UHGV virus genome: UHGV-0196072
Strand: one strand, 5' to 3'
Origin: a virus
Length of the DNA stretch: 49,208 nucleotides
A model generated the notes under the pieces. It had not been told where the DNA came from, ran no database searches, and saw nothing but the letters and a program-made list of their open reading frames with translations. The position numbers were made by a program, and so were the translations under genes. Position 1 is the stretch's first letter, and every line of letters begins with the position of its first letter. Positions 2,204 to 19,591 of the stretch are shown piece by piece.

Positions 2204-2716
2204 TTATCCCTTATCGGGGATAGATGTTCTCACCGATTCGTAAATCCACTCGCAGGTCATTCCTGCTGTGTAGCGTTCGTCAGCGATTGCAGCATATCGT
2301 CGAGCTTCTTCTGCAAGGTCTCCAAGCATGTCGGCAAGCATTCCGGCGGTGGCGCCGGTTGTTTTGCTTCTGACGGTAGCGGCAAGACTTGCGGTGTGCT
2401 TTGCGGCGTCCAGGCGGGTGGCAAGGTTTTTTGCCTGCTGGCGCAGCTGGTTAACAGTGCCAGAGAGATTAGCGGCAGCAGCACGCGCTGCAGCGGTTTG
2501 GGCTTGAGCATCTTGTACGGCCTCATCGCGGGCGATCAAGCGCCCCTGTTCAATCATCCGGGCGGCGGTTTGCGCGTTAACTTCCTGAGCCGATTCGGCG
2601 CTATCACGTTCAGCCCACCGCTTTTCCCATGCCCGATCGCTCCAGGCTAAACCAGCAACAAAGGCACCAGCAATAACCATTACGGCGATAGCTGGCTTTA
2701 AGTAGGCTGCACTCAC
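2204..2716 (-). CDS. Rz: Rz-like inner-membrane spanin (i-spanin)
   Basis: 170 aa with an N-terminal TMD ([17 protein letters not shown]) and a periplasmic Ala/Gln-rich coiled coil. Follows the endolysin and embeds the Rz1 frame. Confidence 0.8.
2257..2511 (-). CDS. Rz1: Rz1-like outer-membrane lipoprotein spanin (o-spanin), fully embedded in the +1 frame of Rz
   Basis: Signal peptide and lipobox (LLTSC) followed by a Pro-rich mature region. Embedded architecture as in lambda. Start taken at the internal Met (MLKPKPLQ). Confidence 0.7.
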
Positions 2717-3243
2717 TGGTCAATCCCCCAGCAAGTCAGCGCGCTTTCCTGATCACGGCGAGAGACCTGGCCGTAACAATTGTTGGAACGCACGCGGCAA
2801 TCTTTTCCGCCATCAAAAATCCACCGGCGAATTTCAGCGCAGGCGCCTTTACGGTCACCGGCATTCAGCTTGCGGTAGAAAGTGGAAGGAAAGCACTTAC
2901 CGGGCCCGATGTTATAGGGGCAGAAACTGGCAATTCCGACCTTTTGAGGAGGCGTAAGGTGAACCCGCACATTCTGATCAACCCATGCCAGCGCTTTATT
3001 GCGCTCGACGGCATTCACCTGATCGCATTTGGCCTGGGTTAACTTCATCCCTTGGGTTACAGGCCTTCCATCTACCCGGGTCGCTCCACGACATATCGTC
3101 CAGATACCGGCGCCATCGCGATACGCTGTAAGGCTGTTTCCTTCTTTCTCATCCAGGAACTGATCCATCAGGGTTGGGGCGGATGCACCAGCCGCTATTA
3201 ATCCCAGCATGGCTGCGCTGAGTTTCGTTTTCAGGGATGCCAT
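2713..3243 (-). CDS. R: SAR endolysin (phage 21 R21-type lysozyme, T4L-like E-8-D-5-T catalytic triad)
   Basis: N-terminal Gly/Ala-rich weakly hydrophobic segment ([22 protein letters not shown]). Motif [11 protein letters not shown]. Overall collinear with R21. Confidence 0.85.
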
Positions 3244-3244
3244 T

Positions 3245-3499
3245 TTATTTATCCTGCGGCGGTTGCGTCACATCCCCCCGCCTGAGCGCATCCTCATAGG
3301 CTTTGGTTTGCCGACGTTTGAAATAAAGGTTCGTAAAATAAGTGGCGACGCCGATCACTACACCACTGACAAGCGCAATGAAGTTCCAGTCAAGACTATG
3401 GAACCAGTCATAAACACGCGCCAGGCCAGTACAAATCAGGCCGCCTGACGTGCAGTACGTAGCCGCTGTAAAGATTTTGTCAGGCATGATTTTGTTCAT
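3245..3499 (-). CDS. S: pinholin (S21-like class II holin) with a dual-start motif MNKIM
   Basis: Two TMDs and a C-terminal TNLYFKRRQTKAYEDALRRGD matching S21 (TNLYFKIREDRRKAARGE). Immediately upstream of the SAR endolysin. Confidence 0.8.
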   Translation of the reverse strand: MNKIMPDKIFTAATYCTSGGLICTGLARVYDWFHSLDWNFIALVSGVVIGVATYFTNLYFKRRQTKAYEDALRRGDVTQPPQDK

Positions 3500-3620: not shown

Positions 3621-3812
3621 TTGATGAGCAGTGCAGAGTTAATCAAAAAACTGATAGCTGATGGTTGGGTTAAGCAAAGACAGACAGGAAGCCATGTAAC
3701 GCTAACAAAACAGGGAATAGAGAAAATAATCACCATTCCCCACCCCAGAAAGGATTCTTCAAAGGGGATTGTTAGACAGGCTCAACAGATATCAGGACTT
3801 AAATTGATGTAA
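3621..3812 (+). CDS. hicA: HicA mRNA-interferase toxin (the ATG at 3624 is the likely start)
   Basis: About 62 aa with a GSH...PHPRKD HicA/YcfA signature. Followed by hicB. AT-rich moron. Confidence 0.75.
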   Translation: MMSSAELIKKLIADGWVKQRQTGSHVTLTKQGIEKIITIPHPRKDSSKGIVRQAQQISGLKLM

Positions 3813-3875
3813 AAGGGAGCGGCGAAAGCCGCCCCTCTCTGCAAGGGTTATCAATACGCAATTAGTGAGGTACCT

Positions 3876-4286
3876 ATGATTTATCCGCTCTTTATTTTCA
3901 AAGCCGATGACGGCACTTTTGATGGCTACTTTCCTGACATCGAAGGTTGCATGTTTGCCGGGAACAACCTCGAAAGCGCATTGAGGGACGCGGAGTCAGC
4001 TTTCGGTCAGCATATGGAAGTTTTGACTGAACAAGGCGGTCATGTGCCTGCGCCAAGTGATCCAGCCGATTATCTGGGTGATGAACGTCTCACCATGGAT
4101 AACGGCTTCTTGGCGCTTGTCGAGATTGACCCATCAAAATACGAAACAAAAGCCGTCAAATTTAATCTCACCATGCCTGGTAATCTATTGACTGCAATCG
4201 ACAGTTACATAGAAAAAAATGGACGGTACAAAAACCGCTCCGCTTTTCTATCTGAGATTGCAAGAAAAGAGATAGCCAGAGGCTAA
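3876..4286 (+). CDS. hicB: HicB antitoxin (HicB N-domain plus C-terminal RHH DNA-binding domain)
   Basis: 136 aa. C-terminal ribbon-helix-helix-like (NRSAFLSEIARKEIARG). Positioned immediately after hicA. Confidence 0.75.
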   Translation: MIYPLFIFKADDGTFDGYFPDIEGCMFAGNNLESALRDAESAFGQHMEVLTEQGGHVPAPSDPADYLGDERLTMDNGFLALVEIDPSKYETKAVKFNLTMPGNLLTAIDSYIEKNGRYKNRSAFLSEIARKEIARG

Positions 4287-4293
4287 ATTACAC

Positions 4294-4316
4294 AAGGCAC
4301 CTTCGGGTGCCTTTTC
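4294..4316 (+). terminator. intrinsic terminator after hicB, between hicAB and the convergent methylase
   Basis: aaggcacc-ttcg-ggtgcctt hairpin followed by a T run. Confidence 0.5.
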
Positions 4317-4321
4317 TCATT

Positions 4322-5371
4322 TCAGCCAGCCATTTTGCGGATCTCGTCAACAGTTTGCTCGAACCGTTCGCCTTCCAGCTCAACCCCTATGGCATGCCGG
4401 CCAGACTTAATTGCTTCCTTGATAGTTGACCCGGATCCCATAAAGAAATCAGCAACGAGATCACCAGGCTTACTACTGGCATTGATGATCTGCAGGAGCA
4501 TATCTGCGGGTTTTTCGCATGGATGCTTACCGGGATAGAACTGAACCGGCTTATGCGTCCAAACGTCCGTATAGGGAACAAGCGCCGTAACGGCGAATTG
4601 ACGCCGGAGGGATTTGTATTCCTCCAGCAATTCTGAATATTTGCGGTTCAGAGAATGCCAGGTTGCTACTAACTCATGGTGAGGGTGGGCCAGCTCGTTC
4701 TTCTGGTGCTTCTCTGCGGCGATCTTTGAAAATAGCGCCTGCAGTTTTAAATAGTCGCTTTCGTTTGGCAGCTGCCATTGGCTAATGCCGAACCAGTGCG
4801 ACACCATGTTCTTTTTGCCGGTAGCGTCAGCTATCTGCTTAGCACTAACGCCAAGCGAATCTCGAGCATTACGGAAATAAGATATAAGCGGCGCCATCAA
4901 ATGCTGCTTAAGGTCGTTACTTTTTTCCGCATACCCATCATCTTTTGGTTGATACGGTCCCTGATAATGCTCAGCAAACAATATTCGCTCTGTAGCTGGA
5001 AAATAGGACCGTAAACTCTCTTTATTGCAGCCATTCCACCGTCCTGATGGCTTCGCCCAGATGATGTGATTCAGTACGTTAAACCGACTCCGCACTAAAA
5101 TTTCGATATCTGAGGCAAGCCGATGACCAGAGAACAGGTAAAGGCTACCGTTCGGCTTTAAAACACGCCAGAACTGCGCCAGACACATATCAAGCCAACG
5201 TAAATAGTCCTCATCCCCTTTCCATTGGTTGTCCCAACCGTTCGGCTTAACCTTAAAATACGGCGGATCCGTAACTATCAAGTCAATGGAGTTATCAGGG
5301 AGGGACGGAAGATATTGCAGGCAATCAGCGTTGATTAATTCAGCACTGGATATTTTTACAGTATTTTTCAT
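4322..5371 (-). CDS. DNA methyltransferase, beta-class (N6-adenine or N4-cytosine): DPPY motif IV precedes the FxGxG motif I
   Basis: IVTDPPYF near the N-terminus. ADFFMGSGST near the C-terminus. Confidence 0.75.
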   Translation of the reverse strand: MKNTVKISSAELINADCLQYLPSLPDNSIDLIVTDPPYFKVKPNGWDNQWKGDEDYLRWLDMCLAQFWRVLKPNGSLYLFSGHRLASDIEILVRSRFNVLNHIIWAKPSGRWNGCNKESLRSYFPATERILFAEHYQGPYQPKDDGYAEKSNDLKQHLMAPLISYFRNARDSLGVSAKQIADATGKKNMVSHWFGISQWQLPNESDYLKLQALFSKIAAEKHQKNELAHPHHELVATWHSLNRKYSELLEEYKSLRRQFAVTALVPYTDVWTHKPVQFYPGKHPCEKPADMLLQIINASSKPGDLVADFFMGSGSTIKEAIKSGRHAIGVELEGERFEQTVDEIRKMAG

Positions 5372-5520
5372 AGATCAGTAAGCAGGACTCTGATAGGCTC
5401 ACTATGCTTTTGCGCTAAAGCAGTGGGCCTTGGTTCGCTTGTGACCTTCTACATGAGCGAATGGCTGGTCGGGTGCTCCAACACCCACCAGCCGCCCATT
5501 TTCACAGCAGATAGCCCCCA

Positions 5521-5712
5521 TTAAGGGAGGCGCTTGTAACATCCGAATTGATAGTCAGATAAACCCGCCATTACCAGCTGCGTTAAAATTAACTGACAGC
5601 GCTCACGCGTCAGATGCGTGTTTTGCGAAATCTCCCCAACCGTAGCTGGTTCATCACTTAACTCATTGAAAACCGCGCGCGCCACTTCCGTCATATCATA
5701 TTGATTTAGCAT
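5521..5712 (-). CDS. hypothetical protein (63 aa)
   Basis: ORF only. Sits between the Q-like gene and the methylase. Confidence 0.25.
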   Translation of the reverse strand: MLNQYDMTEVARAVFNELSDEPATVGEISQNTHLTRERCQLILTQLVMAGLSDYQFGCYKRLP

Positions 5713-5905
5713 GTCTTTTTCCTGTTCAAACGGTATGACATACAGATAACTCTGGTTGCTAACGTCATCAAGAAGTAATTGCAGAAGGCATAAAAAAACC
5801 CCGCCTAAGCGAGGTTATTTATAAATATGGAAGAATATCAAATTACCCTAAAATATCGCTCATTTTGTTGCATTTTGCAAGCCAGTTTGACGAAGATAGC
5901 CAACT

Positions 5906-6625
5906 TTAATCACATTTTTCAGTTCTGGCCTCTTCTATCTGTTCATGATGGCTGTAGATGTGTTGCAATGCGTTGCTATCCATCTCAACGAAAGCCTTTT
6001 TAAGCCGATCCCAATGACCGGCATACACTCTTTTCCATGTCGAACGATCAACGGAAACCATACGCGCCAGTGCTGCGCCAGCGTAGGCTTTATAAGTCTC
6101 ATTATTCCGTGTCGCGGCAACCTCCTGGGCAGCCAACCAGACCAGCCCCACCAGCTTTTTGATAACTCTCGATTGGATCGCCCTGCCTACCTGATAGTTC
6201 TGGTATTCAGTCCAGATGTGTTGGCACATTATCGTCTGGTACCGAAAGTTAAGGTCGAAGCCATAACAATAGCGCACCCATGCCTGGTGGTGCTCTTCCA
6301 GCAGGTTCACAGCCCGGCGCCACGGTGAATAACCAAACTCGATATCATTGATGGGTGGCATCGGCCGGCGGCGGCTGCGAGTCTCCATCACATGAACAGG
6401 AGTGGTCAGAGCTTTAACTACAGACGGGCCGCAGCCAATCCCCCCTTCAAGATCGACCATGTGGCTGGCGCGCCGTGGATTTTTATTCTTATCTGCTGGT
6501 GGGTTCTCGCTGAATGCCTCGAGTTGTCCCTTTGTTGCGCCGGATAAATCCAACAACGCTCGACGAACTTCAATACGGGTATATTCCAGATTTTGTAGAT
6601 TCATACTGCTCAGTGCTCCATACAC
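5906..6625 (-). CDS. putative late-gene antiterminator (Q-like; QuuQ/YdfT-type; Phage_antitermQ-like). The ATG at 6604 is the alternative start
   Basis: Length about 235 aa. Located downstream of a DUF968 gene, as ydfU-quuQ are in the Qin prophage, and upstream of the lysis genes. Confidence 0.45.
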   Translation of the reverse strand: MYGALSSMNLQNLEYTRIEVRRALLDLSGATKGQLEAFSENPPADKNKNPRRASHMVDLEGGIGCGPSVVKALTTPVHVMETRSRRRPMPPINDIEFGYSPWRRAVNLLEEHHQAWVRYCYGFDLNFRYQTIMCQHIWTEYQNYQVGRAIQSRVIKKLVGLVWLAAQEVAATRNNETYKAYAGAALARMVSVDRSTWKRVYAGHWDRLKKAFVEMDSNALQHIYSHHEQIEEARTEKCD

Positions 6626-7687
6626 TTATGCTTTTACAATCACACCGATCGCTATGGCCCTATCAAGGAAACGGAACAACAGTTGCAGCTGTGAGCCGTT
6701 TTTCTCTTCAAACGCATTTACGTCGGCATGTAGCTCGTCGTGACACTCTCTGCACAGAGGAAACACGAAGAGATCGTGGGCTTTGGTTGCGGTACCGCCC
6801 ATGCCATGCCCGATGACATGATGCGGATCATCTCCGGGGCGACGACAGCACTCGCATGGCTGCCGCTTCACCCAGTCGGTGTAAGTCTGGTTAACCCAAC
6901 GCCGGCGCTTAGGTTTCAGCATGAAGGATTCTGGTGATTCCGGATCGGCGGCCAGCGCCAGCACCTTCGGCTGTTCCTGCTGCGCCTGCGCTCCTTCGTT
7001 GGGCCTGCATGCTTGCGCTGCACCTGATGAGGGGAGTTTTTCCTGCAGAATGCTGGTGGCCGGTACTGAAGGTCGGATATCGCTTTCTTTATATACCGAC
7101 TGGAACGGCTCCTCGGGAAGACGCAGACCTCGCTGTGCCATCGTCTCGGTGATAGCATCGGCGGCGCCGGAGTACACGGCCCACCAGCACAGCTCCGGCA
7201 GTGACAGCTCCCGCTCTCGTCCCAGTTGCAGGCCTGTGATGGCGGTATCAATAACCCAGTCGATAACGTTCCGGCGCGCCAGCGCGGTAAGCGTGCCAGT
7301 GGTCTGTTCTCGAAGGCGGGTGTCGCAGTACCAGCAGAGCATCATCGCACCAGGAGGATGACGCATGGTGACCAGTTCGTGGTGATGGTAATCGGAGTGC
7401 GGGTACTGGCATTCGCGAATGTTGTGCTGAAGCCAGTATTCAAGCCCTGGCAAGCCCCCGGCGGCTTTGATGACACGCTCACTGGTGAAAAAGTCTTCCA
7501 ATACCTTATCTTCAGCCAGCGGCTGGCGCGCGTCAGGAACGGCACCAGCCTCCAGCCCCGCCATACTTTTTGGCTCAGACTCGATTAGCACCCTCCCGTT
7601 GCGGAAAAGCCTCATCAGTTCTTTACCAGGCTTAAACAGTACCACGCCTAAGCGTGGCACCACTTCCGGAGTTAGCAGGGCTCTCAT
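6626..7687 (-). CDS. DUF968 phage protein (YdfU-like) with a C-terminal Cys/His cluster
   Basis: 353 aa. C-terminal CECCRRPGDDPHHV...CRECHDELH. Confidence 0.5.
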   Translation of the reverse strand: MRALLTPEVVPRLGVVLFKPGKELMRLFRNGRVLIESEPKSMAGLEAGAVPDARQPLAEDKVLEDFFTSERVIKAAGGLPGLEYWLQHNIRECQYPHSDYHHHELVTMRHPPGAMMLCWYCDTRLREQTTGTLTALARRNVIDWVIDTAITGLQLGRERELSLPELCWWAVYSGAADAITETMAQRGLRLPEEPFQSVYKESDIRPSVPATSILQEKLPSSGAAQACRPNEGAQAQQEQPKVLALAADPESPESFMLKPKRRRWVNQTYTDWVKRQPCECCRRPGDDPHHVIGHGMGGTATKAHDLFVFPLCRECHDELHADVNAFEEKNGSQLQLLFRFLDRAIAIGVIVKA

Positions 7688-9411
7688 GCGACCTCCCTTT
7701 GGACGTTACACATTTCGGGGAGATTCGCTCTCACTAATGCCTCGGCGAAAGGAGGAGGAACTGCGTTACCGCAGCGTGCCACCTGCTTGTCTTTTGCGTA
7801 ACGGTTGCCACGATAATCGCGATCGATGATGTAACCAGCCGGGAAACCCTGCGCCCGGTATAGCTCATGCGGCTGCAGCATGCGCATACCGATATCCACA
7901 ATCTGATAATCATCACCATCAACGGTAACCAGGCCAAATCGATCGTTGGTTGTCACCGTCCCCAGCGGCTCCGACAGTGAAACTCCGCCCTTTTCGTTGC
8001 CGTAATATTTCATCAGGAAAGCACGGACTTCTCCGAGATGCAGACCGCCAGCCGTGACCGTCGGTACAGGCTGATCCACTTTGCGGCCGTCTTTGCAGGT
8101 ACCGCGAAGATGAACAAGATGCGAGGTCACGACAGCATGGTGATCCGTTGTTGTCACCGTATGGGCTGGCGCGCCCATCGCAGCCCCTGGTCCGGTGTAG
8201 TTCCCGCCAAAGTGCTTCGCCAGAAACGCGGTGACCAGCTGAGATTTCCCACCACCACCAGCGGTGACGGTGCCGTTTGGTTCGTCGGCGCGGTGCCCGG
8301 TGCTGGCGCCAAACTGACGCGCAATGACGGGAGCAACAACGCAGGATCGGGATTCTTTCAGAATGGTGTGTGCTGGCTTACCCATCGGACGGGGTTTAGC
8401 CTGATATTCACTCCCCCCATTACCAGCCAAAAAAGGAGTAACGACGGCGTAACCGTGGGTTTTGGTGATAGTCTGCAGCGGCACGTCGAGTTCCTGACCC
8501 CTAAAACAATCGTACGAGGTCCGGGTGCTGGTGTGGTTGCACTTGACGATAAATGGCGTCGGGTTATTCAGCACAAAACGCTCGATACCGCGCGCAATGC
8601 GTTTAAGCGTGTTCTCCGCCAACGGCTTAGCACGTTCAAAGATGCTCGGACAGGGCAACGACCAGTCAATGCACTCTGCTGCCGTTCGCCATGGCGCCAG
8701 TCTGCCACTCTGCACTTCCAGTGATTTCGGATCCCCATGGGTGGGGGCTGGCCAGCGTACGCTTTCACCGTCGCAGCGCATGACCATAAAGAAGCGTTTG
8801 CGGATTGTCGGCGCCCCGAAGTCGCAAGCGCGCAACTCGCGGTAATCGATGTTGTATCCCAGCCCCTGAATCAAAGACCGAGCTTGCTCGCTATCGGGCT
8901 GAATGGAAAGAAACGCGCACACCTCCGCCAGCGCCGGATGATTAGCATTAATACCAGTCGACAGCATTCCAACAAATGCAGCAAATGTTTCGCCAGTACG
9001 CGCTGGATCCGGGCGCATCTCATCTTCCAGCAGCGGCCCCCAGGTTTTAAATTCCTCGACGTTCTCAAGCATCATGACGCGCGGACGCTTCGCCAGCGCC
9101 CAGCGAATGACTACCCACGCCAGCCCTCGAATCTCTTTTTTTACCGGCTTAGCGCCCTTGGCTTTGGAGAAGTGCCGGCAATCAGGGCTGAACCATGCGA
9201 GACCAACAGGGTTGCCGCCAGTCGCCGCCACAGGATCGACATCAAATACGGACTCGCAGTAATGCAGCGTATCGGGGTGGTTCGTCTTGTGCATGGCAAT
9301 GGCGTTTTCATCATGGTTGATGGCGATGTCAACACTGCGCCCAATCGCCAGCTCAATCCCTGTTGACGCCCCACCGCCACCAGCAAAGTTATCAACGATA
9401 ATTTCACGCAT
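7684..9411 (-). CDS. DNA (cytosine-5)-methyltransferase (the ORF extends to 9450; the internal Met at 9411 is the preferred start)
   Basis: Motif I FAGGGGAS, PC motif FSPDCRHFS, ENV motif MLENVEEF, and a C-terminal GNAV motif. Confidence 0.8.
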   Translation of the reverse strand: MREIIVDNFAGGGGASTGIELAIGRSVDIAINHDENAIAMHKTNHPDTLHYCESVFDVDPVAATGGNPVGLAWFSPDCRHFSKAKGAKPVKKEIRGLAWVVIRWALAKRPRVMMLENVEEFKTWGPLLEDEMRPDPARTGETFAAFVGMLSTGINANHPALAEVCAFLSIQPDSEQARSLIQGLGYNIDYRELRACDFGAPTIRKRFFMVMRCDGESVRWPAPTHGDPKSLEVQSGRLAPWRTAAECIDWSLPCPSIFERAKPLAENTLKRIARGIERFVLNNPTPFIVKCNHTSTRTSYDCFRGQELDVPLQTITKTHGYAVVTPFLAGNGGSEYQAKPRPMGKPAHTILKESRSCVVAPVIARQFGASTGHRADEPNGTVTAGGGGKSQLVTAFLAKHFGGNYTGPGAAMGAPAHTVTTTDHHAVVTSHLVHLRGTCKDGRKVDQPVPTVTAGGLHLGEVRAFLMKYYGNEKGGVSLSEPLGTVTTNDRFGLVTVDGDDYQIVDIGMRMLQPHELYRAQGFPAGYIIDRDYRGNRYAKDKQVARCGNAVPPPFAEALVRANLPEMCNVQREVA

Positions 9412-10294
9412 GGACCGCCCCCTGCATACTGCTGACCAGTCCACCAGCAATGGTTATGATCTCGCTGATTGATGTGCGCTCCAGCCAGAGCTGGTTGATG
9501 TGGGATTTCAGTTTGTTCTGCTGCGACTCCTCCAAATCGGTGGCACCTTCAAGCTGCCCGAATGCCAGATTGACCTCCAGCGGCCATATGCGAGATTCAA
9601 TAACAGGCTCAGCGGCTGGTTTCGCCGCAGGAGGCGGAGCTACATCCCGCGCCGGAGATACCAGCCCAGCTGCGAACTGCGCCAGCGCCATACTTGCACG
9701 CCCTTTTGCTTCCAGCTCCACGCGATCGATATAGCTAAAGTGCTCGCCGCGCCAGGTCTTATCAAATACCGCAATGGCCCCGGCAAAGAAAGCGCTGGTG
9801 GGCTTCTGCTTTTCGTCGGCAGGCACAAACCACGCAGGAAGATCGAATCCAATGCGACCACGAATAAACATGATGTGATCGGCATCTTCCGGCCACCATG
9901 TTTCACTTGTTGCAGACTTCACGAGGTAAATGTAGCGACCGCCCTTTTCACGCTGCTCGGCGGTATAGTTCATGATGTGCGTCATGCCAGTGATGGCTTG
10001 TTTTTCATGGTACTGTGAGCGGCTGTAAGGCGGGTTAGCAAAGGCCGCGCCGCCGAGTTCCACCAGCCGACCAGACCAGTCCTGTGTCAATGCGTTATCT
10101 TCAGCTGTGTACCATGCTGGGCATTTTGCGTTGCTGTCGTCGGCAAACAGGTCCAGCACCAGCGGACCAAACACAGCGTTAATGCCCCAGAACAGCAGAT
10201 CCGGCGTCCGCCATTGATCGCCAACTTCTTTCAAATAATGGGCCTTCTGGTTACGCAATGCGTCTAAGGCCTGGCAATATTGGTTTTTTGTCAC
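9404..10294 (-). CDS. phage Dam-type DNA N6-adenine methyltransferase (GTG start)
   Basis: FANPPYS motif. About 296 aa. The start overlaps the stop of the upstream replication gene (GTGA). Confidence 0.7.
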   Translation of the reverse strand: MTKNQYCQALDALRNQKAHYLKEVGDQWRTPDLLFWGINAVFGPLVLDLFADDSNAKCPAWYTAEDNALTQDWSGRLVELGGAAFANPPYSRSQYHEKQAITGMTHIMNYTAEQREKGGRYIYLVKSATSETWWPEDADHIMFIRGRIGFDLPAWFVPADEKQKPTSAFFAGAIAVFDKTWRGEHFSYIDRVELEAKGRASMALAQFAAGLVSPARDVAPPPAAKPAAEPVIESRIWPLEVNLAFGQLEGATDLEESQQNKLKSHINQLWLERTSISEIITIAGGLVSSMQGAVHA

Positions 10295-11163
10295 GAGCGG
10301 AACCCCTTCGGTGTGCTGTATTCAACGCTGGAATAGTTGGACTTGAACGCCTGGTCTTCGCCTCCGGCTTTGGTCCATTTCCCATCAACGCATTTCGGGC
10401 GACCGGCGGCATTCCACTTGGTTGCAGACTGGAGATAGCCGGGGAATTTTGACTGCAGAAATAACGTGGTAGGCCGCAGATATTCAGCCATTTTTAAATC
10501 TTTCCCCCACTTCTCAGCGCTGTAATCAACCACCAGCGCCAGTTCTTCAGGTGTAAATCCTTCCCGCAGCCTGCCCCGGATGTGTTCCAGAGAGGTTTTG
10601 CATACCTGAAAACGTGAACCGGTTGTGAGGTTCAGGTGAGAAAGGGCCTGCTTAGCAAGATCGGTGATAACTACTTCCGGGTCGGGTTCCGCAGGAACCG
10701 GACAAGAAGGTTTTTTAACTGATGGATCAGTAGTTGTATTTACTGACGGATCCCCCCCAGATTCTGACGGGTGAAAACCGCCTTTTTCATCGTTTTTTGA
10801 TGCCTCAGATTTTGACGCGTCGGTTTTTGAGGCATCAGATTTTGATGCGTCAGAATCTGACAGGTGAGAAAAGGCAGCAGCCTGTAATTTCGCAACATTG
10901 AGCTGGTAAACGTTCGATGCATTCCGGTTGCCTTTACGGCGCTGCTGGCGGGTTAACCACCCGTCTTTTTCCAGTTGAGATATGGCTGTGCGAACCGTGC
11001 TCTCACCGGCACCAATCTGGCGCGCGATGGTAGCGATGGAAGGCCAGCTAACCCCTTCATCACTGCTGAAGTCTGCCAGACGCGCCATGATGGCAACGCT
11101 GGACAGCTTCATGCCAGAAGCGGCACAAGCGTCCCAAACGTAACCCGTTAATTTAGTGCTCAT
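10291..11163 (-). CDS. replication initiator, lambda-O-like organisation: N-terminal HTH domain, central (S-D-A-S-K)n linker encoded by iterons, and a C-terminal domain
   Basis: N-terminal winged-HTH-like segment (SWPSIATIARQIGAGESTVRTAISQLEKDGWL). Internal 15-bp DNA repeats. Position after cro/cII as in lambda. Confidence 0.55.
   Translation of the reverse strand: MSTKLTGYVWDACAASGMKLSSVAIMARLADFSSDEGVSWPSIATIARQIGAGESTVRTAISQLEKDGWLTRQQRRKGNRNASNVYQLNVAKLQAAAFSHLSDSDASKSDASKTDASKSEASKNDEKGGFHPSESGGDPSVNTTTDPSVKKPSCPVPAEPDPEVVITDLAKQALSHLNLTTGSRFQVCKTSLEHIRGRLREGFTPEELALVVDYSAEKWGKDLKMAEYLRPTTLFLQSKFPGYLQSATKWNAAGRPKCVDGKWTKAGGEDQAFKSNYSSVEYSTPKGFRS
10757..10875. repeat. about six imperfect 15-bp direct repeats (consensus yGCrTCAGATTTTGA) inside the replication gene; candidate ori iterons
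   Basis: Periodic units tgcctcagattttga, cgcgtcggtttttga, ggcatcagattttga, tgcgtcagaatctga. Confidence 0.5.
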
Positions 11164-13486: not shown

Positions 13487-13601
13487 TACACAACAGGGAA
13501 GAGCACCACCGGCACCGGGAACTAACCCTGCCCGGATCCGAGTTCAAAGCGTGGACCCTCTCTCCTTCAGGCTCTGAACTGGTGCTCTTCCCTGTTGTGT
13601 A
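13487..13601. repeat. 22-bp perfect inverted repeat (tacacaacagggaagagcacca / tggtgctcttccctgttgtgta) enclosing a 71-bp spacer
   Basis: Arms at 13487..13508 and 13580..13601 are exact reverse complements. Located in the roughly 500-nt non-coding leader between pL and the first early-left gene. Confidence 0.9.
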
Positions 13602-13648
13602 TGAAGAAATTCCCGGCGGTGGCAGCCGCCTTTCGAGATGGTAAAACT

Positions 13649-14020
13649 ATGAGTAATGATCGCATGACAGTAGTGCCCGATTTCCTGGGCGAACTGGACG
13701 CCGGCGTATTCATGAACAAGATTGCGGCGGCTCTAAATACCACCGCGCTCGGCGTTCTGAACAACGGCAACAAAGGCAAGGTTGTCCTCACCTTTGATTT
13801 TGAGCGTATGGGCAACTCTGTTGAAGAGAAGCGCGTCAAGATTAAGCACAAGCTGAACTACAGCACCCCAACTCCCCGCGGCAAAGCGTCGGAGGAGGAC
13901 ACCACCGAAACACCAATGTGGGTTAACAAAGGTGGCAAGCTAACAATCCTGCAGGAGGATCAGGGGCAACTCTTCGGTATCACCGGTACGGTGGACGGAA
14001 AGCTTAAAGCGGATCAGTGA
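13649..14020 (+). CDS. hypothetical early protein (YfdP-like?). The ORF is open from 13595
   Basis: First gene of the pL operon. Not Arg-rich, so not N-like. Confidence 0.35.
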   Translation: MSNDRMTVVPDFLGELDAGVFMNKIAAALNTTALGVLNNGNKGKVVLTFDFERMGNSVEEKRVKIKHKLNYSTPTPRGKASEEDTTETPMWVNKGGKLTILQEDQGQLFGITGTVDGKLKADQ

Positions 14021-14076
14021 ACCGCACGCACAAATTCACTGATACCACTTCGCTAATCAGTTAATAAGGAATTTTT

Positions 14077-14904
14077 ATGTCTCAGTTAGACAGCGGTACT
14101 TTTCAGCAAGTCAAAGACCTGGTGCTTTCCGGTTATCACCTGAACGATATCCACGGGCTGGCCTGCCCGACCGCCCTGCTACCGCAGAATACCAGCATTG
14201 AAAGCCTGGAGCGTTTTGCATTTGAGCGTTTCCGTTTCCGCGGCGCTATGGACACTACCAGCATTGATGATTTCGTTCGCTATTCTGTCGCTTACGCCCA
14301 AGAAGAAGAAAAAGCCCGCTGCTTTATTGATGCCGATAACATGCTGGCCCGTTCTATCTTCAATATCGGCACGCTGGACAACCCTGGTCATGCCGATAAC
14401 GTCGCCTCAATCAAGCTAAAGAAAACAGCGCCCTTCCGCGCGTTACTGGCGATCAACGGCGATCACCTTAATCAGAAGCAAATCGCTGAGTGGCTCGAAG
14501 ACTGGAGCGATTATCTGCTGGCCTTTGATGCTGGCGGCAACACGATGACGATCGCCCAGGCTGCGCAAGCTGTCCGCCGCGTCACTATCCAACAGGCAAC
14601 TCAAGCCGACCATGAAGATAGTGACTTTAGCGGTAAGAAATCGTTGATGCAAAGTATTGAAGCCAGCAGTAAAGAGGTTATGCCGGTAGCGTTTGAGTTT
14701 AAGTGTGTACCTTATGAGGGCCTGGGCGAACGTCGTTTCAGTCTGCGCAATAGCCTGCTCAAAAGTAGCGATCCGGTATTCGTTCTGCGTATTGTCCAAC
14801 TGGAAGCCCAGGAAGAAGCGATCGCCAATGAGTTCCGCGATCTACTGATTGGCAAGTTCGACGGAAAGCCTGTAGAAACCTTTATCGGCAACTTCAAAGC
14901 CTGA
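14077..14904 (+). CDS. YfdQ-like (DUF2303) phage protein
   Basis: 275 aa. Followed by an HD-domain YfdR-like gene, as in the CPS-53 yfdPQR cluster. Confidence 0.45.
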   Translation: MSQLDSGTFQQVKDLVLSGYHLNDIHGLACPTALLPQNTSIESLERFAFERFRFRGAMDTTSIDDFVRYSVAYAQEEEKARCFIDADNMLARSIFNIGTLDNPGHADNVASIKLKKTAPFRALLAINGDHLNQKQIAEWLEDWSDYLLAFDAGGNTMTIAQAAQAVRRVTIQQATQADHEDSDFSGKKSLMQSIEASSKEVMPVAFEFKCVPYEGLGERRFSLRNSLLKSSDPVFVLRIVQLEAQEEAIANEFRDLLIGKFDGKPVETFIGNFKA

Positions 14905-14917
14905 TTGCTCTCCATTA

Positions 14918-14945
14918 AATCCCCGTAGTTGCGGGGATTTATTAA
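14918..14945 (+). terminator. intrinsic terminator after the yfdQ-like gene
   Basis: aatccccg-tagtt-gcggggatt hairpin followed by a T-rich tract. Confidence 0.5.
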
Positions 14946-15036
14946 AGCGTAATCCTGCAATTAATCGCCACCTGGCGAGGGATTTCTACACCCAAAATTC
15001 AGCGCTGTGCAGAGCGCTATTAAACGGAGAAATACG

Positions 15037-15564
15037 ATGAGCTTTATTCAAACACTGTCTGGCAAGCACTTTAACTATAACGATATTCAAGAGGACGCTA
15101 TCGTCATTGAAGACATTGCAACAGCCCTCTCACACATCTGCCGCTTTGCCGGCCATCTGCCGGAGTTCTACAGCGTCGGGCAGCATAGCGTTCTGGTTAG
15201 CCACCTGGTGCCGCAGGAGTTCGCACTCGAGGCTTTACTGCATGACGCTGCAGAGGCTTATATGCAAGACATCCCTGCGCCGCTTAAGCGATTACTGCCC
15301 GACTACCAGGTTATAGAAACACGTGTTGATGCGGCGATCCGCAAAAAGTTTGGTCTGCCGGCAGAGCAGCACCCTACCGTTAAATATGCCGACTTAGTCA
15401 TGCTGGCCAGCGAACGCCGTGATTTCGAGATCGACGACGGAACTCACTGGCCTATGCTCGACGGAATTATTCCCACTGACCAATTCGTTATTAATCCTGT
15501 CCGCCCTGGGCAGTCTTACGGCATGTTCATGAATCGCTTTAACCAGCTGGTGGAGCGGCGCTAA
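15037..15564 (+). CDS. HD-domain phosphohydrolase (YfdR-like 5'-deoxynucleotidase)
   Basis: H..HD motif (SHICRFAGH ... LLHDAAEAY). GGAGA RBS before the ATG at 15037. Confidence 0.6.
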   Translation: MSFIQTLSGKHFNYNDIQEDAIVIEDIATALSHICRFAGHLPEFYSVGQHSVLVSHLVPQEFALEALLHDAAEAYMQDIPAPLKRLLPDYQVIETRVDAAIRKKFGLPAEQHPTVKYADLVMLASERRDFEIDDGTHWPMLDGIIPTDQFVINPVRPGQSYGMFMNRFNQLVERR

Positions 15565-15761
15565 TGGCACACGTAAAAGTAAAAGACCTCGTTGCGGCTG
15601 CACATGCCGCATCACAAGATTTGCCACCAGCATCAGCGAAGTTAATGCGCGATACCGCTACTCGTCTGGACGTTACCTACGCCGCACTAACTGAAGCAAT
15701 GGATCAAAACACAGCGCTGGCGGCTATGTTAGCTGCAGCGCAGAAAAAGGAGAAAAATTAG
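15564..15761 (+). CDS. hypothetical protein (65 aa)
   Basis: ORF coupled to the HD gene (ATG overlaps its stop). Confidence 0.3.
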   Translation: MAHVKVKDLVAAAHAASQDLPPASAKLMRDTATRLDVTYAALTEAMDQNTALAAMLAAAQKKEKN

Positions 15762-15762
15762 C

Positions 15763-16335
15763 GTGAACCATTTAATGATCGACCTCGAATCAATGGGGAA
15801 AAAGCCAAACGCGCCGATCGTCTCAATTGGTGCCGTCTTTTTTAACCCTCAAACAGGTGAACTTGGCCAAGAATTTTACACGGCTGTCTCGCTTGAAAGC
15901 GCAATGGCTCAAGGCGCGGTACCGGATGGAGATACAATTCTTTGGTGGCTAAAACAAAGCCCGGAAGCGCGCTCAGCTATTTGTGTTGATGATGCGATGC
16001 CTATCACTGATGCACTGTCGGAACTTAGCAATTTCATTCACCGGCATGCATATAATCTCAAATACATGAAGGTCTGGGGTAACGGGGCCACCTTTGACAA
16101 TGTGATTCTGCGCGGAGCTTACGAACGCGCCGGACGCATTTGCCCGTGGGAATTTTGGAACGATCATGATGTACGCACGATTGTTACCCTCGGTCGCAGT
16201 GTTGGTTTCGATCCGAAGCGTGACATGCCTTTCATTGGCGATGTTCACAACGCCCTGGCTGATGCGCGCCATCAGGCAAAATATGTGTCAGCAATTTGGC
16301 AGAAACTTATCCCTGCCACCAGCACCAACGAGTAA
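15763..16335 (+). CDS. DEDD-family 3'-5' exonuclease (DnaQ / RNase T-like)
   Basis: Exo I motif MIDLES and Exo III motif HNALADA. Confidence 0.65.
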   Translation: MNHLMIDLESMGKKPNAPIVSIGAVFFNPQTGELGQEFYTAVSLESAMAQGAVPDGDTILWWLKQSPEARSAICVDDAMPITDALSELSNFIHRHAYNLKYMKVWGNGATFDNVILRGAYERAGRICPWEFWNDHDVRTIVTLGRSVGFDPKRDMPFIGDVHNALADARHQAKYVSAIWQKLIPATSTNE

Positions 16336-16379
16336 ACCACTCAGCCCGGGTGCAGCCGGGCTTTATGGAGAAGGAAACC

Positions 16380-16589
16380 ATGGCAAAGCTAATGAAAGCG
16401 AGTCTCTGGAGTAAGCGCGAATTTACCAAAGACTCCATTCCTGACAACCGTACAATTAAACGTTGGGTCGAAAACGGATTACTCATGGGAAGGATTGTAG
16501 ATGGTTCAGTTTTTGTCTATGAAACCGAAAAGTGGGGAGTTGACTCAATTGTTAATCAGGCGGTACGTCAGTTAATAATTGAGGGTTGA
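16380..16589 (+). CDS. xis: excisionase (Xis-like)
   Basis: About 70 aa. Resembles lambda Xis (WSKREFTKDSIPDNRTIKRWVENGLL). GGAGAAGG RBS. Immediately upstream of int. The ORF is open from 16296. Confidence 0.6.
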   Translation: MAKLMKASLWSKREFTKDSIPDNRTIKRWVENGLLMGRIVDGSVFVYETEKWGVDSIVNQAVRQLIIEG

Positions 16590-16591
16590 CC

Positions 16592-17779
16592 ATGGCAGCA
16601 AGGCCACGAAAAAAAGAATACCGCCACCTTCCTGATTATCTTTTTTTTGATAAAGATCGTGGCGTGTATAAGTTCACGCTTATAACTGGGAAAAAGAAAA
16701 CTCTCGGTTCGGATCGAGTAATGGCTATCGCCATCGCCCGAGAATATAACCTGAGGATGCGCCCAGAAAATACACCATCGATAGATTCATTAATTCGGGA
16801 ATCGGGAGGGCTGAATGGTGAAGCCCACCCGTTTTCTGAACATGTTGATCGCATTATGGAGAGAGCGATCAAAGATGAGCAGCCGTCTAAAAGCACACTT
16901 GACGATTGGAATAATGATGCCATCAGGGTTAAAGAATTTTTTAATAACATACCCGCATGCGATATTGAGCTTGAGCACGTAAATGCCTACATACGAAATT
17001 ACCATTCTGAATCGTCGGCCAATGTTCAGAACCGAAAAGTTAGCTTCCTGAAAAAGTTATTTTCTTATGCTGTTGATGAATCGCTAATGATGGATAACCC
17101 TGCAACACGGAAAAAAATGCGGCGTGTCGATAAAAAGGTCCGCCGGCGACTTACTTTGGAACAGTTCCTGGCCATACATGCAGCTGCTGAACCTTGGCTG
17201 AAGACTGCAATGGACCTTGCCATACAAACTACGCAAGCGCGCCTGGAAGTTTCCCGGATCCGGTACTCGATCAAGGAACCTCAAGAAGGGGTTTGCGGCT
17301 GTGTATGGTTCGATCAGGAGGAGGCTGGCATATTCGGAACGCTTTACATTCACCGGCAAAAAGTGCAGCACAAAGAGGCTTCACACGTCGCTATTCCGAT
17401 CGGCAGGGCCCTGAAAGAGATCATCGACAACAGCAGAGACAATGTGGCCAGTCCTTATGTTGTTCACCGGCTTCTGGAAAAGAGAAGCAATCCGATAAGC
17501 AAGGAAGTTAACCACCCAACACAGGTGGCCCCTGATTATTTGAGCAGGGCATTTTCAGAGCTGCGGGACCGGATAGGTGTAGCGGCAGAATTACCTATCA
17601 AAGAAAGGCCAACTTTCCACGAGATTAGAGCGCTGGCGGCTCATATTTTCGAAAGACAAGGTATCGATCCGCAGGCAAGGATGGCCCATAGTGATGCAAA
17701 ATCGACAAAAATTTATACCCAGAACCATGTGGAATGGGTAGAAGTTCCTCATGCTGAAATTGTCTTTAAAGCCGGGTGA
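16592..17779 (+). CDS. int: tyrosine integrase (lambda Int family)
   Basis: N-terminal arm-binding domain (RPRKKEYRHLPDYLFFDKDRGVY). C-terminal catalytic HEIR...H..Y region. GAGGG RBS. Adjacent to attP. Confidence 0.9.
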   Translation: MAARPRKKEYRHLPDYLFFDKDRGVYKFTLITGKKKTLGSDRVMAIAIAREYNLRMRPENTPSIDSLIRESGGLNGEAHPFSEHVDRIMERAIKDEQPSKSTLDDWNNDAIRVKEFFNNIPACDIELEHVNAYIRNYHSESSANVQNRKVSFLKKLFSYAVDESLMMDNPATRKKMRRVDKKVRRRLTLEQFLAIHAAAEPWLKTAMDLAIQTTQARLEVSRIRYSIKEPQEGVCGCVWFDQEEAGIFGTLYIHRQKVQHKEASHVAIPIGRALKEIIDNSRDNVASPYVVHRLLEKRSNPISKEVNHPTQVAPDYLSRAFSELRDRIGVAAELPIKERPTFHEIRALAAHIFERQGIDPQARMAHSDAKSTKIYTQNHVEWVEVPHAEIVFKAG

Positions 17780-17915
17780 TGTATGGGGAAAAACCTACCC
17801 GTAACTCATTGATGTATATAGTGCGGATTTTGCAAAAAATGCACTGTTTGCATATACAGTCAAACATGCCGTAGCACCAGTATTTTCAAGGGTTGCAGCG
17901 GCTTTAACGCAGTGA

Positions 17916-17961
17916 CATGGGGTGTCGGGGGTCGGAGGTTCAAATCCTCTCGTGCCGACCA
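17916..17961 (+). tRNA. Not a gene: 46-nt 3'-terminal fragment of tRNA-Pro(GGG), proL-like (anticodon-stem 3' side through CCA). This is the phage attP core
   Basis: catggggtgtcgggggtcggaggttcaaatcctctcgtgccgacca matches the 3' part of enterobacterial proL. The upstream sequence is not tRNA. Lies between int and the tail-fibre gene. Confidence 0.7.
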
Positions 17962-17976
17962 AAAACCTTAGAAAAA

Positions 17977-18001
17977 CCAGCCTCTTATGGCTGGTTTTTT
18001 T
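17977..18001 (+). terminator. intrinsic terminator downstream of the tRNA-fragment core
   Basis: ccagcc-tcttat-ggctgg hairpin followed by T7. Confidence 0.55.
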
Positions 18002-18061
18002 GTGCCTGTTTTTCATACGGGGAGTTATTGGGGTGAAACTGGGGTGAAAACCCGTCAAAAA

Positions 18062-19591
18062 CTAGGTGACAGGGCAACCTTCTGAAGTTACTGAATGTAC
18101 GTCTGTAGTTTGAACCAGCTTGTTCAAATCACGCACTTGTTTTGTTAACTCCTGCACTGACGAAACAAGATCAGCAATGATGGCTACATAGTCCACGTTC
18201 ATTACCTGAAACTTTTCCCCATCGATCTCCTGCTCGATGCCGAGGAAAGTATACAGATCGTCAGCTTTCTCAGCCTGCTGGGCGATAAAGCCACGCCTGC
18301 GGCGTGTTTCCCCCTTCATGTTAAACTCGCATACCCCTAGCGCATTAATGCGCCTGGAGGCCCCTTCCTGGGGTTCTGTAAATCCGTCTTTCAGACGAAC
18401 GTCAGAACCGGTAGTCATGACGTCGCCTTTAGGGGTGGAGATTGTCCCACCGGTGTAAAAGAGCCAGGCATCTTTTCTGTCAAAACCGTCCATATACAGT
18501 ACCACCCGGTGGTTGTACCCAACGTATTCTTCAAGGTAGAAACCACCCCACGCTCCGGAGGGGTCACCGTTACCGCCGCGTCCCAGCATTCTGGATCGAA
18601 TACGTCCGCCTGAAACCAACGAACCATCAGCAGGGGAACCAAAGTCTGTTCTGTTGGCCGAAAGGTCGACTCCGCATTGCGCCCACCCTCCAATATCTGC
18701 CATACCACCAACACGAAGATCCCTGTCAACTCGCCAATGACTACCTTGTACACTAATTTGATCGGCGGCAGTGGCCATAATCCGCCCGGTGAAGTCGTCG
18801 GTGCTGTAGTTAAAATGAAAGTCGATGTATGGCGTGCTAAATGACAGCTCAATCGCCTGGGTATACAGCAACCCCTTCGTCGTGTTGTCGATGTCGCCGC
18901 CGGCAGTCAGCGCGCCAGGTAGTGTCGTTCGGTTGTTGGCATCAATAACGAGGATGTCATCAAAGGTGTCTGCCGGTGATACAGTGGTCGCTCTTGAACG
19001 CTGAACCCTAAACGGTGTTCCCGAGCCAACGGCAATTGTCCCGCCTTGCCCCTGTTTTTTGAGCAGAGCCAGATCTGAGTTCTTACCGAGTATAAAACCG
19101 GCATTATCGCTGGTTATAACCTGCGAGCCGTCGAGTTTGTTTCCTCCGGTGAGTTTTGCCAGCGCGTTAAGATCCGAGGCCTTCGCCATCCCGGCTATCG
19201 CCGGCACGGTCACCTGCTTTCCTGTGATCGGGTCAGTCAGGGTGATATTGCCGCTGCCGGTCAGGGCCATCGACCAGCCCTCCACTACACTACGCCAGAA
19301 TGCAAACGCGCTGGCCAGCTGGTTAGCAAACGACGAGGTGCTGGCGGTTTCAGCGGTAATAATGCCGTAACTAGCACCGGAAAATGCGGTGGTGATATTC
19401 CTGGTCAGCGTCAGTTGCGTGTCGCTGTCCACGGATTTGATCGCATACAGGTCAGCACTACCGCTGCGGTAGACCACTAGAATCGACCCGGGCAGTATCC
19501 CCAGCGCCTCCTGTGACCATTTTGTTGTCGCACCTGTCACCCGTGCTTGCGACGCGGCACCCATGACGGTACCGACTTCATACATCGCCAT
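18062..19591 (-). CDS. side tail fibre protein with a C-terminal Peptidase_S74 intramolecular-chaperone autoprocessing domain
   Basis: 509 aa. Conserved S-D-x-R-x-K (SDVRLKDGF) and a C-terminal helical chaperone segment. No separate tfa gene follows. Confidence 0.65.
   Translation of the reverse strand: MAMYEVGTVMGAASQARVTGATTKWSQEALGILPGSILVVYRSGSADLYAIKSVDSDTQLTLTRNITTAFSGASYGIITAETASTSSFANQLASAFAFWRSVVEGWSMALTGSGNITLTDPITGKQVTVPAIAGMAKASDLNALAKLTGGNKLDGSQVITSDNAGFILGKNSDLALLKKQGQGGTIAVGSGTPFRVQRSRATTVSPADTFDDILVIDANNRTTLPGALTAGGDIDNTTKGLLYTQAIELSFSTPYIDFHFNYSTDDFTGRIMATAADQISVQGSHWRVDRDLRVGGMADIGGWAQCGVDLSANRTDFGSPADGSLVSGGRIRSRMLGRGGNGDPSGAWGGFYLEEYVGYNHRVVLYMDGFDRKDAWLFYTGGTISTPKGDVMTTGSDVRLKDGFTEPQEGASRRINALGVCEFNMKGETRRRRGFIAQQAEKADDLYTFLGIEQEIDGEKFQVMNVDYVAIIADLVSSVQELTKQVRDLNKLVQTTDVHSVTSEGCPVT

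Follow-up and report, generated by a model that had tools for sequence, protein, structure and literature searches.

Why should a single lambda-like phage carry three different DNA methyltransferases (MTases) with no evident restriction partner? This question is raised by the virus genome UHGV-0196072, of which a stretch of 49,208 nucleotides (nt), hereafter the window, was analysed as a whole. The window is a lambda-like temperate phage of the Klebsiella type, with structural genes that are 89-95% identical to those of Klebsiella lambda-like phages, and its minus strand from 11163 down to 2204 forms the lambda-type early-right and late-left region. This region encodes a Dam-family MTase (PF05869; 9404..10294, minus strand, 296 amino acids (aa)), a C5-cytosine MTase (PF00145; 7684..9411, minus strand, 575 aa) and a beta-class MTase (PF01555; 4322..5371, minus strand, 349 aa). 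An earlier note on this DNA had read the three open reading frames (ORFs) as enzymes of three chemistries, and we indeed confirmed them as intact MTases with the small correction that the C5 protein had been given as 576 aa because the stop codon was counted; all catalytic motifs are present in all three MTases and none is degenerate. Our preferred reading, which we hold with moderate confidence, is that these are solitary MTases of two temporal classes that pre-emptively methylate the DNA of the phage progeny.

As we picture it, an early pair composed of the Dam-family N6-adenine MTase and the C5 enzyme would be made together with the replication gene while the phage DNA is being copied, because their genes lie directly behind that gene in an overlap-linked run of four. 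A late enzyme, an apparent orthologue of M.EcoGII, is encoded behind the antiterminator gene Q, a terminator-like hairpin, a small winged-helix ORF and a leader, just upstream of the lysis genes, and would stay silent in the lysogen and be made only late in lytic growth. Packaged DNA would then carry N6-methyladenine (m6A) at most of the 22,811 adenines of the genome in any sequence context, m6A at the Dam-family enzyme’s own site, and 5-methylcytosine (m5C) at one or several sites set by an array of six modules in the C5 enzyme. DNA marked in these three ways would be protected in advance against methylation-sensitive restriction in the next host. Anti-restriction, which the earlier note had also proposed, is the role that the literature assigns to such phage MTases (PMC5778455, PMC12707154), and for the window phage we infer that, of the possible functions, advance protection of the progeny's DNA has the best support.

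By its sequence, the beta-class enzyme is a full-length orthologue of M.EcoGII, a 349-aa beta-class enzyme from a prophage of E. coli O104:H4 that methylates adenine in any DNA context (PMC5778455). The window protein aligns end to end with PF01555 (N6_N4_Mtase, E = 1.5e-40) and carries VTDPPYF (aa 33-39) ahead of FFMGSGST (aa 309-316), i.e., motif IV before motif I as in the beta class. It shares 268 of 348 positions (77%) with M.EcoGII over the full length with 2 gaps, both proteins being 349 aa long, though these identities may be off by about 1% because the reference was machine-read from the PDF of Table S1 in PMC11551740. What it has in common with M.EcoGII and M.EcoGI is this length, the beta layout with DPPY, a helical recognition region and FxGxG; what sets it apart from M.EcoGII are around 80 substitutions, of which 20 fall within the 78-aa recognition region (residues 160-237; 58 of 78 positions or 74% identical, compared to 68-85% in other regions). 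Its identity to the reconstructions Anc291, Anc289 and SUPREM is 84, 82 and 72%, and the corresponding values of M.EcoGII itself are 83, 81 and 70%. This parallel drop toward the deeper ancestors suggests that the window enzyme appears in the same clade, as judged by identities and not by a tree. M.EcoGII, Anc291 and SUPREM are largely non-sequence-specific on RNA (PMC11551740). Matches of the window enzyme in the PDB are generic beta-class MTases. A sensible prediction, transferred from an enzyme of 77% identity, is thus that the beta-class MTase deposits m6A independently of context rather than at a motif. The earlier note was therefore right about an N6-adenine/N4-cytosine enzyme of the beta class, while its expectation of a target motif is not supported, and the logic of the "multi-specificity arsenal" that it had proposed changes with the assignment to M.EcoGII.

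Close relatives of this enzyme are common among temperate phages of Enterobacterales. Copies of 100% identity are found in a fragment of Klebsiella phage KpnBHU6 and in one IMG/VR contig, and a tblastn search detected the M.EcoGII-like family in 94 phage records including SfV, mEp460, cdtI, phiP27 and many Stx2 phages as well as in prophages of dozens of Enterobacterales species. The homologues of phages 1720a-02, SfV, mEp460, cdtI, phiP27 and the Stx2 phages are 78-84% identical to the window enzyme. Among them, the MTase of phage 1720a-02 (78%) was named as very similar to M.EcoGII by Murray et al. (PMC5778455), and it indeed matches the machine-read M.EcoGII sequence at 326 of 349 positions. 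Phage 1720a-02 also resembles the window in the succession of Q, a small winged-helix ORF, a spacer of 150 nt with the same leader, and the MTase, yet there the MTase is followed by stx2, whereas in the window a hicAB insertion comes next and then the lysis genes. The winged-helix ORF, the leader and the M.EcoGII-like gene of this Stx2 phage thus form a cassette (locus L251, 2120-4449) directly upstream of stx2A, so that the non-specific MTase and the toxin share a Q-dependent late position.

The timing that we propose for the late enzyme is read from its place in the genome. As the earlier note had seen, the beta-class gene lies between the antiterminator gene Q (5906..6625, minus strand; PF06323, E = 2e-37) and the genes for holin, lysozyme and Rz (2204..3499, minus strand). 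Around 90 nt downstream of the end of Q at 5906, a consensus scan together with reading of the sequence revealed a terminator-like hairpin with a U-run (5797..5816, minus strand) that by pattern match is a candidate tR', and a plausible -35/-10 pair can be read ahead of it. Both elements resemble pR' and tR' of phage lambda, from whose biology their function would follow. Located beyond Q and the candidate tR', the beta-class gene should belong to a Q-dependent late transcript. Expression restricted to late infection would fit the reports that M.EcoGII is unexpressed in the lysogen and harmful if expressed, for which a switch-on at induction has been proposed by the authors who described it (PMC5778455, PMC12707154).

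Two further elements accompany the late enzyme. One is a 63-aa winged-helix ORF (5521..5712, minus strand; phrog_331, E = 1.9e-30, with weak matches to DprA_WH and TrmB) that is present in 131 of 181 MTase loci, compared to 1 of 50 loci without the MTase; in 105 of these 131, its distance to the MTase downstream is 150-199 nt. Phage 1720a-02 has this ORF as well. Many homologues of this ORF have a small covarying hairpin with a U-run that spans the stop codon. The other is a conserved structured 5' leader of ca. 115 nt (5388..5500, minus strand; nhmmer E = 8.5e-35 in the window) that ends ca. 16 nt before the start codon of the beta-class MTase, within a spacer of 149 nt between the winged-helix ORF and the MTase that is more conserved than both flanking genes. 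Searches with an nhmmer core profile found this leader once each in 155 of 184 MTase loci, nearly always with its end 0-20 nt before the start codon, whereas of 50 loci that lack the MTase only 2 have it. The leader also occurs in phage 1720a-02 and in 43 loci where no winged-helix ORF was detected. For its structure we propose three helices, with 96.4% of cells paired versus 26-48% in slid controls and a minimum free energy z-score of -2.26. The helix P2, spotted by eye and then checked by pair counting, contains the covarying pair 86:110 (CG 13, AU 6, UA 3, UG 3, none broken), of which the G-U pairs point to an RNA of the sense strand. With a sequence this conserved, an RNAalifold consensus revealed hardly any covariation; the leader has no match in Rfam, and no tRNA was found in or near it. 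We regard it as a lead, namely a candidate regulatory leader of a gene whose product harms the cell, with a covariation signal that comes essentially from one pair among closely related sequences.

The early pair is found at the head of the same strand, where an O-like replication initiator gene (10291..11163, minus strand; Phg_2220_C and HTH_36, with PHROG replication initiation families) is first in the overlapping chain. It overlaps the Dam-family gene by 4 nt (GTGA), the Dam-family gene overlaps the C5 gene by 8 nt (ATGCGTGA), and the C5 gene overlaps a DUF968/HNH gene (6626..7687, minus strand; PF06147, E = 8.5e-71) by 4 nt (ATGA). The two MTase genes are thus back-to-back with overlapping ends after the replication gene, just as the earlier note had described, though the HNH-type DUF968 gene overlapping the C5 gene was overlooked there.

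The "Dam-type" label given to the first of the pair in the earlier note stands as regards an N6-adenine MTase family, though not as regards the family of E. coli Dam. The protein matches PF05869 (E = 1.2e-43, 149.1 bits against a cut-off of 28.1) and the NCBIfam equivalog TIGR01712 (194.8 bits against a cut-off of 97.05), and its catalytic domain (ca. aa 1-205) carries LDLFAD and FANPPYS. PF05869 is its only Pfam match at E <= 0.01, so that PF02086, the family of the alpha-class E. coli Dam, gives no match and the two proteins are unrelated in fold class; a search by sequence found no relative in the PDB. What the window protein has in common with the family of phage T1 Dam is that it passes both the TIGR01712 and PF05869 models and has the W-x-T-P, LDLFAD and NPPY motifs. 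Members of this family from T1, HP1 and VT2-Sa are reportedly specific for GATC. The window protein is 30% identical to T1 Dam over 104 aa only, which is too low for this target to be transferred to it, and a scan of palindromes in the genome for target clues gave nothing beyond the usual depletion of CTAG (observed/expected ratio of GATC 0.78). Closer relatives of aa 1-203 (70% identity) are encoded by SfV, mEp460, cdtI and Stx2 phages, all of which also carry the M.EcoGII-like gene, and the pair of Dam-family and M.EcoGII-like genes is therefore standard in this group of phages.

Behind its catalytic domain, the window protein has a C-terminal extension (aa 211-296, 86 aa; 9407..9664, minus strand; phrog_16025) composed of a Pro/Ala-rich linker and a domain of ca. 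60 aa. This extension travels with the C5 gene: across the fetched loci, both are present in 81 and neither in 18, with 16 discordant cases, which among interrelated loci is a linkage and not proof of an interaction. Dam-family proteins of relatives come in three sizes of ca. 200, 290 and 440 aa (e.g., locus L002, 8891-10225). A "phosphoadenosine phosphosulfate reductase" label attached to some of them in PHROG and GenBank seems to stem from fusion proteins of the family and misdescribes the window protein.

The combination of three MTases is not peculiar to the window phage. The order of replication gene, Dam-family gene, C5 gene, DUF968, Q, small ORF, beta-class MTase and lysis genes recurs in Citrobacter phage phiNP (OR565852) and E. 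coli CX21 prophages, and the same three MTases in the same order and positions are found in Escherichia phages Flotzy, Eeyore and Phi06_2987 as well as E. coli CX prophages. These phiNP-type relatives differ from the window, of which the structural half is of the Klebsiella type, and nearly all of them have no hicAB; in some, the Dam-family protein is ca. 444 aa long or the C5 gene is separated from DUF968 by an antirepressor gene. The GenBank record of phiNP names the DUF968/HNH gene (locus L001, 5204-6271) a second "antitermination protein Q" and the M.EcoGII-like gene "dam", both of which look wrong. We counted the recurrence in two samples, both biased to close relatives and not phylogenetically independent, in which a locus is usable if its upstream sequence is long enough to show the other genes. 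Among the 80 IMG/VR loci closest to the beta-class gene, 67 were usable, of which 25 have all three MTases, 19 the beta-class and Dam-family genes, 4 the beta-class and C5 genes, and 19 the beta-class gene only (15 of these 19 still with DUF968). With one genome per species, the 70 usable loci comprise 7 with all three (two Enterobacter, Klebsiella, Mixta, Kluyvera, Buttiauxella and a metagenome bin labelled Geobacteraceae), 9 with beta-class and Dam-family genes, 2 with beta-class and C5 genes, and 52 with the beta-class gene only. Loci anchored on the C5 gene have the Dam-family gene in 45 of 48 cases. The trio thus recurs as a less frequent version of a module that is itself common, and the view of the earlier note that it is unusually rich for a 49-kb lambdoid phage has to be dropped.

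The other member of the early pair is the C5 enzyme. It matches PF00145 (E = 8e-21, 75.2 bits against a cut-off of 22) and has the motifs of its class in order: I FAGGGG, IV SPDCRHFS, VI LENVEEF (ENV), VIII TIRKRFF, IX RMLQPHELYRAQGFP and X GNAVPP. A TTG-started ORF would reach 9450, and the ATG at 9411 agrees with the homologues. The dcm superfamily model of NCBIfam (TIGR00675) scores 56.8 bits against a cut-off of 100.65 and aligns only with the N-terminal 118 aa, so that by profile score the enzyme is not Dcm-like; of the "Dcm-type" MTase proposed in the earlier note, the C5 chemistry remains. It is 90.6% identical to the "putative methylase" of phiNP, and at least 8000 relatives were scored in a large protein database, the matches listed being from Enterobacterales; further members of the family occur in phages of Pseudomonas, Vibrio, Aeromonas, Roseburia, Bacillus and Rhodobacter. 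Matches in the PDB are weak and cover only short stretches of the conserved catalytic core (best 3g7u, E = 1.8e-6).

Between motifs VIII and IX, where the window protein has an unusual variable region, aa 311-503 (7903..8481, minus strand) are composed of six tandem modules of 22-37 aa that we consider candidate target-recognition units. At the head of each is P-x-x-T-[IV]-[TL], after which comes a hydrophobic strand, with the motif at positions 311, 346, 378, 415, 448 and 482; in order, the modules are PLQTITKTHGYAVVTPFL, PAHTILKESRSCVVAPVI, PNGTVTAGGGGKSQLVTAFL, PAHTVTTTDHHAVVTSHL, PVPTVTAGGLHLGEVRAFL and PLGTVTTNDRFGLVTV. A hidden Markov model (HMM) built from 44 non-redundant units of close homologues, the window included, scores the six units with 17-30 bits each, whereas 100 shuffled Bacillus MTase sequences gave 1.7 bits at best. 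We also aligned the enzyme with seven homologues (82-99% identity at the aligned positions), and each large indel in this alignment corresponds to one whole module. When the variable regions of 215 close homologues were cut at the motif and the pieces clustered, we obtained 22 clusters, several of which merge adjacent units due to a missed motif and which thus represent ca. 20 module types, in 48 arrangements that include duplications (CDDEF), alternative C-terminal units and natural orders such as CDEF, ABGCDEF and RMBCDEF. The number of motif copies per protein ranges from 4 to 9 among close homologues, and in distant relatives from Vibrio, Roseburia, Rhodobacter, Pseudomonas and Bacillus phages, the final two units are retained while the others vary.

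What such an array would recognise is a matter of analogy. Tandem target-recognition domains that give one enzyme several targets are an established mechanism in the multispecific MTases of Bacillus phages (PMC8936443, PMC12707154). Like the window enzyme, the MTases of SPR, phi3T, rho11s and H2 are solitary phage enzymes with one core, an enlarged region between motifs VIII and IX, and consecutive units with a T-[LIV]-[TS] core and a hydrophobic strand whose content varies between close relatives. They differ from it by belonging to another core subfamily, none being among the matches listed at E <= 1e-20 for the window protein, and the window family differs in turn by its Gram-negative host range and by having more units (six, with 4-9 copies in relatives). 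T-[LIV]-[TSN] cores number 3 in the variable region of M.SPRI, 2 in M.Phi3TI, 4 in M.Rho11sI and 4 in M.H2I, and these enzymes are said, in papers of the Trautner group, to have 3, 2, 2 and 3 targets. Inactive pseudo-domains have been described for such enzymes of Bacillus phages.

Whether the six modules confer several targets or together build one large recognition domain we consider roughly evenly balanced. That the enzyme is an ordinary one-site MTase in which module number barely affects the target is a serious possibility, if somewhat short of even: all distant homologues examined, even enzymes of three modules, retain modules E and F, as if part of the array were a constant scaffold, no relative has a known target, and the module profile is without significant similarity to the mapped recognition domains of Bacillus phage MTases. 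The HMM indeed found the T-L-T cores of the SPR, phi3T, rho11s and H2 enzymes with at most 1.7 bits, no better than in shuffled sequences, so that the likeness to them is architectural only. Two AlphaFold2 predictions, one run with 41 close homologues and another with 35 sequences including a ca. 55%-identical clade from a profile search, left the module region (aa 248-511) at a predicted local distance difference test score (pLDDT) below 50, though the second modelled the C5 catalytic core well. Yet the gain, loss, duplication and swapping of whole modules between close homologues would be hard to accommodate in a single rigid domain, the number of cores in the four Bacillus phage enzymes is close to their known number of targets, and tandem domains with several targets are precedented (PMC8936443). 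One might also suspect that the C5 enzyme is the modification half of a restriction-modification-like or self-protection pair with the DUF968/HNH protein, given the ATGA overlap of their genes and the His-Me (HNH) nuclease motif of DUF968 (PMC5714182). We consider this most improbable and rejected DUF968 as a nuclease partner of the MTases on grounds of co-occurrence and literature, because 62 of the 67 loci anchored on the M.EcoGII-like gene encode it and 34 of these 62 have no C5 gene, an antirepressor gene separates the two in E. coli CX21, DUF968 has no PADLOC match, and it is known as an Orf-like recombination domain fused to HNH, a recombination-type nuclease of the nin region beside RusA and Q (PMC4118853, PMC5714182). 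The other neighbours of the MTases, i.e., the replication gene, Q, the winged-helix ORF and hicAB, include no restriction nuclease either. Ten more ORFs located away from the MTases (70-1598 and 13595-19591) were scanned against PHROG, which gave no restriction-endonuclease family but families of recombination, nucleotide metabolism, integrase, tail fibres and others of unknown function. The statement of the earlier note that no cognate restriction endonuclease is evident thus agrees with our results, and the term "orphan" is justified for these MTases.

Beyond the question of their targets, the three MTases might mainly serve the phage’s own DNA transactions or regulation, such as full methylation for packaging, avoidance of mismatch repair or promoter control. 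Dam methylation of the pac sites of phage P1 is an example of this kind. The coupling of the Dam-family and C5 genes to the replication gene would fit such a role, host Dam and Dcm leave the virion DNA of lambda and P22 undermethylated, as modification lags behind replication (PMC8022706), and regulatory orphan MTases of phages are known (PMC12707154). We nevertheless consider it unlikely, if deserving some weight, because an adenine MTase that ignores sequence context has no means of conveying site-specific regulatory information, the fast turnover of modules in the C5 enzyme looks like an arms race and not like housekeeping, and one or two of the three genes are missing from many close relatives, so that none of the three is essential to this type of phage. 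It is far less probable still that one or more of the genes are inactive relics. M.EcoGI and M.EcoGII indeed cause no detectable methylation in their lysogen, but for M.EcoGII this silence is a matter of regulation, given the high activity of the enzyme once cloned (PMC5778455). The catalytic motifs of all three window MTases are intact, and in comparison with phiNP (21-27% diverged) the C5 gene has a ratio of nonsynonymous to synonymous substitution rates (dN/dS) of 0.04 and the Dam-family gene one of 0.07, with dN = 0.13 and saturated dS for the beta-class gene, so that all three are under strong purifying selection.

Several observations nonetheless weigh against pre-emptive protection by three enzymes as we propose it. 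Besides the poor match of the C5 modules to mapped recognition domains and their low-confidence structure prediction, the Dam-family enzyme looks redundant if the late enzyme marks nearly every adenine. The non-specificity of the latter is borrowed from an enzyme of 77% identity, and it could take only a few changed residues in the recognition region to make the enzyme specific again; the proposed expression timing would follow from gene position. Heavily m6A- and m5C-modified DNA would moreover be a target for Mrr, McrBC and winged-helix m6A-dependent nucleases (PMC11037411), which makes any net benefit dependent on the host. In favour of protection, palindromic restriction sites show no strong avoidance in the genome (lowest z-score of a 6-mer -2.1), which is weak evidence. 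A literature search on the phage Dam family, phiNP, M.EcoGII homologues in the phage life cycle and multispecific C5 MTases outside Bacillus returned nothing directly relevant, with key older papers outside its reach.

If pre-emptive protection is indeed what these enzymes provide, a phage with nearly all adenines methylated and cytosine methylation at one or several sites in addition should cross many restriction barriers at once, and would at the same time be vulnerable to modification-dependent nucleases. Toxin and resistance genes travel on temperate phages of Klebsiella, E. coli and related bacteria, and the spread of these phages partly depends on passing restriction. Knowing the role of each enzyme helps to predict host range and to choose or engineer therapeutic phages. 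What might be new here are the modular recognition array of the C5 enzyme and the structured leader, the rest being of known kinds. We would propose only tentatively, and with more doubt than confidence, that the former may be the first multispecific C5 MTase recognised in Gram-negative phages and that enzymes of the M.EcoGII type may be held in check by an undescribed leader of ca. 115 nt together with a winged-helix protein. If the cassettes reshuffled between near-identical C5 enzymes set the targets, each phage lineage would have different protected sites, and if one array sets several targets, the family would constitute a natural and rapidly evolving toolkit of 5-methylcytosine specificities. 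M.EcoGII is a widely used laboratory tool, so that it is also of practical use to learn about its natural variants and how these are regulated in the phage.

Two other features of the window deserve mention. A single 4199-aa ORF (19769-32368, minus strand), in which aa 91-217 match a GpJ FNIII-A domain and aa 3908-4049 a tail-tip fibre domain, is apparently the tip-attachment protein J at around four times its usual length, with ca. 3700 aa between both domains that have no assignment. Finally, a hicA/hicB toxin-antitoxin pair on the opposite strand (3621..4286, plus strand) is wedged between the late MTase and the holin gene, convergent with the MTase and with a shared hairpin at 4294-4313. 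This pair is found in only 1-2 of 67 related loci and therefore looks like a recent moron insertion through which the late transcript must read.

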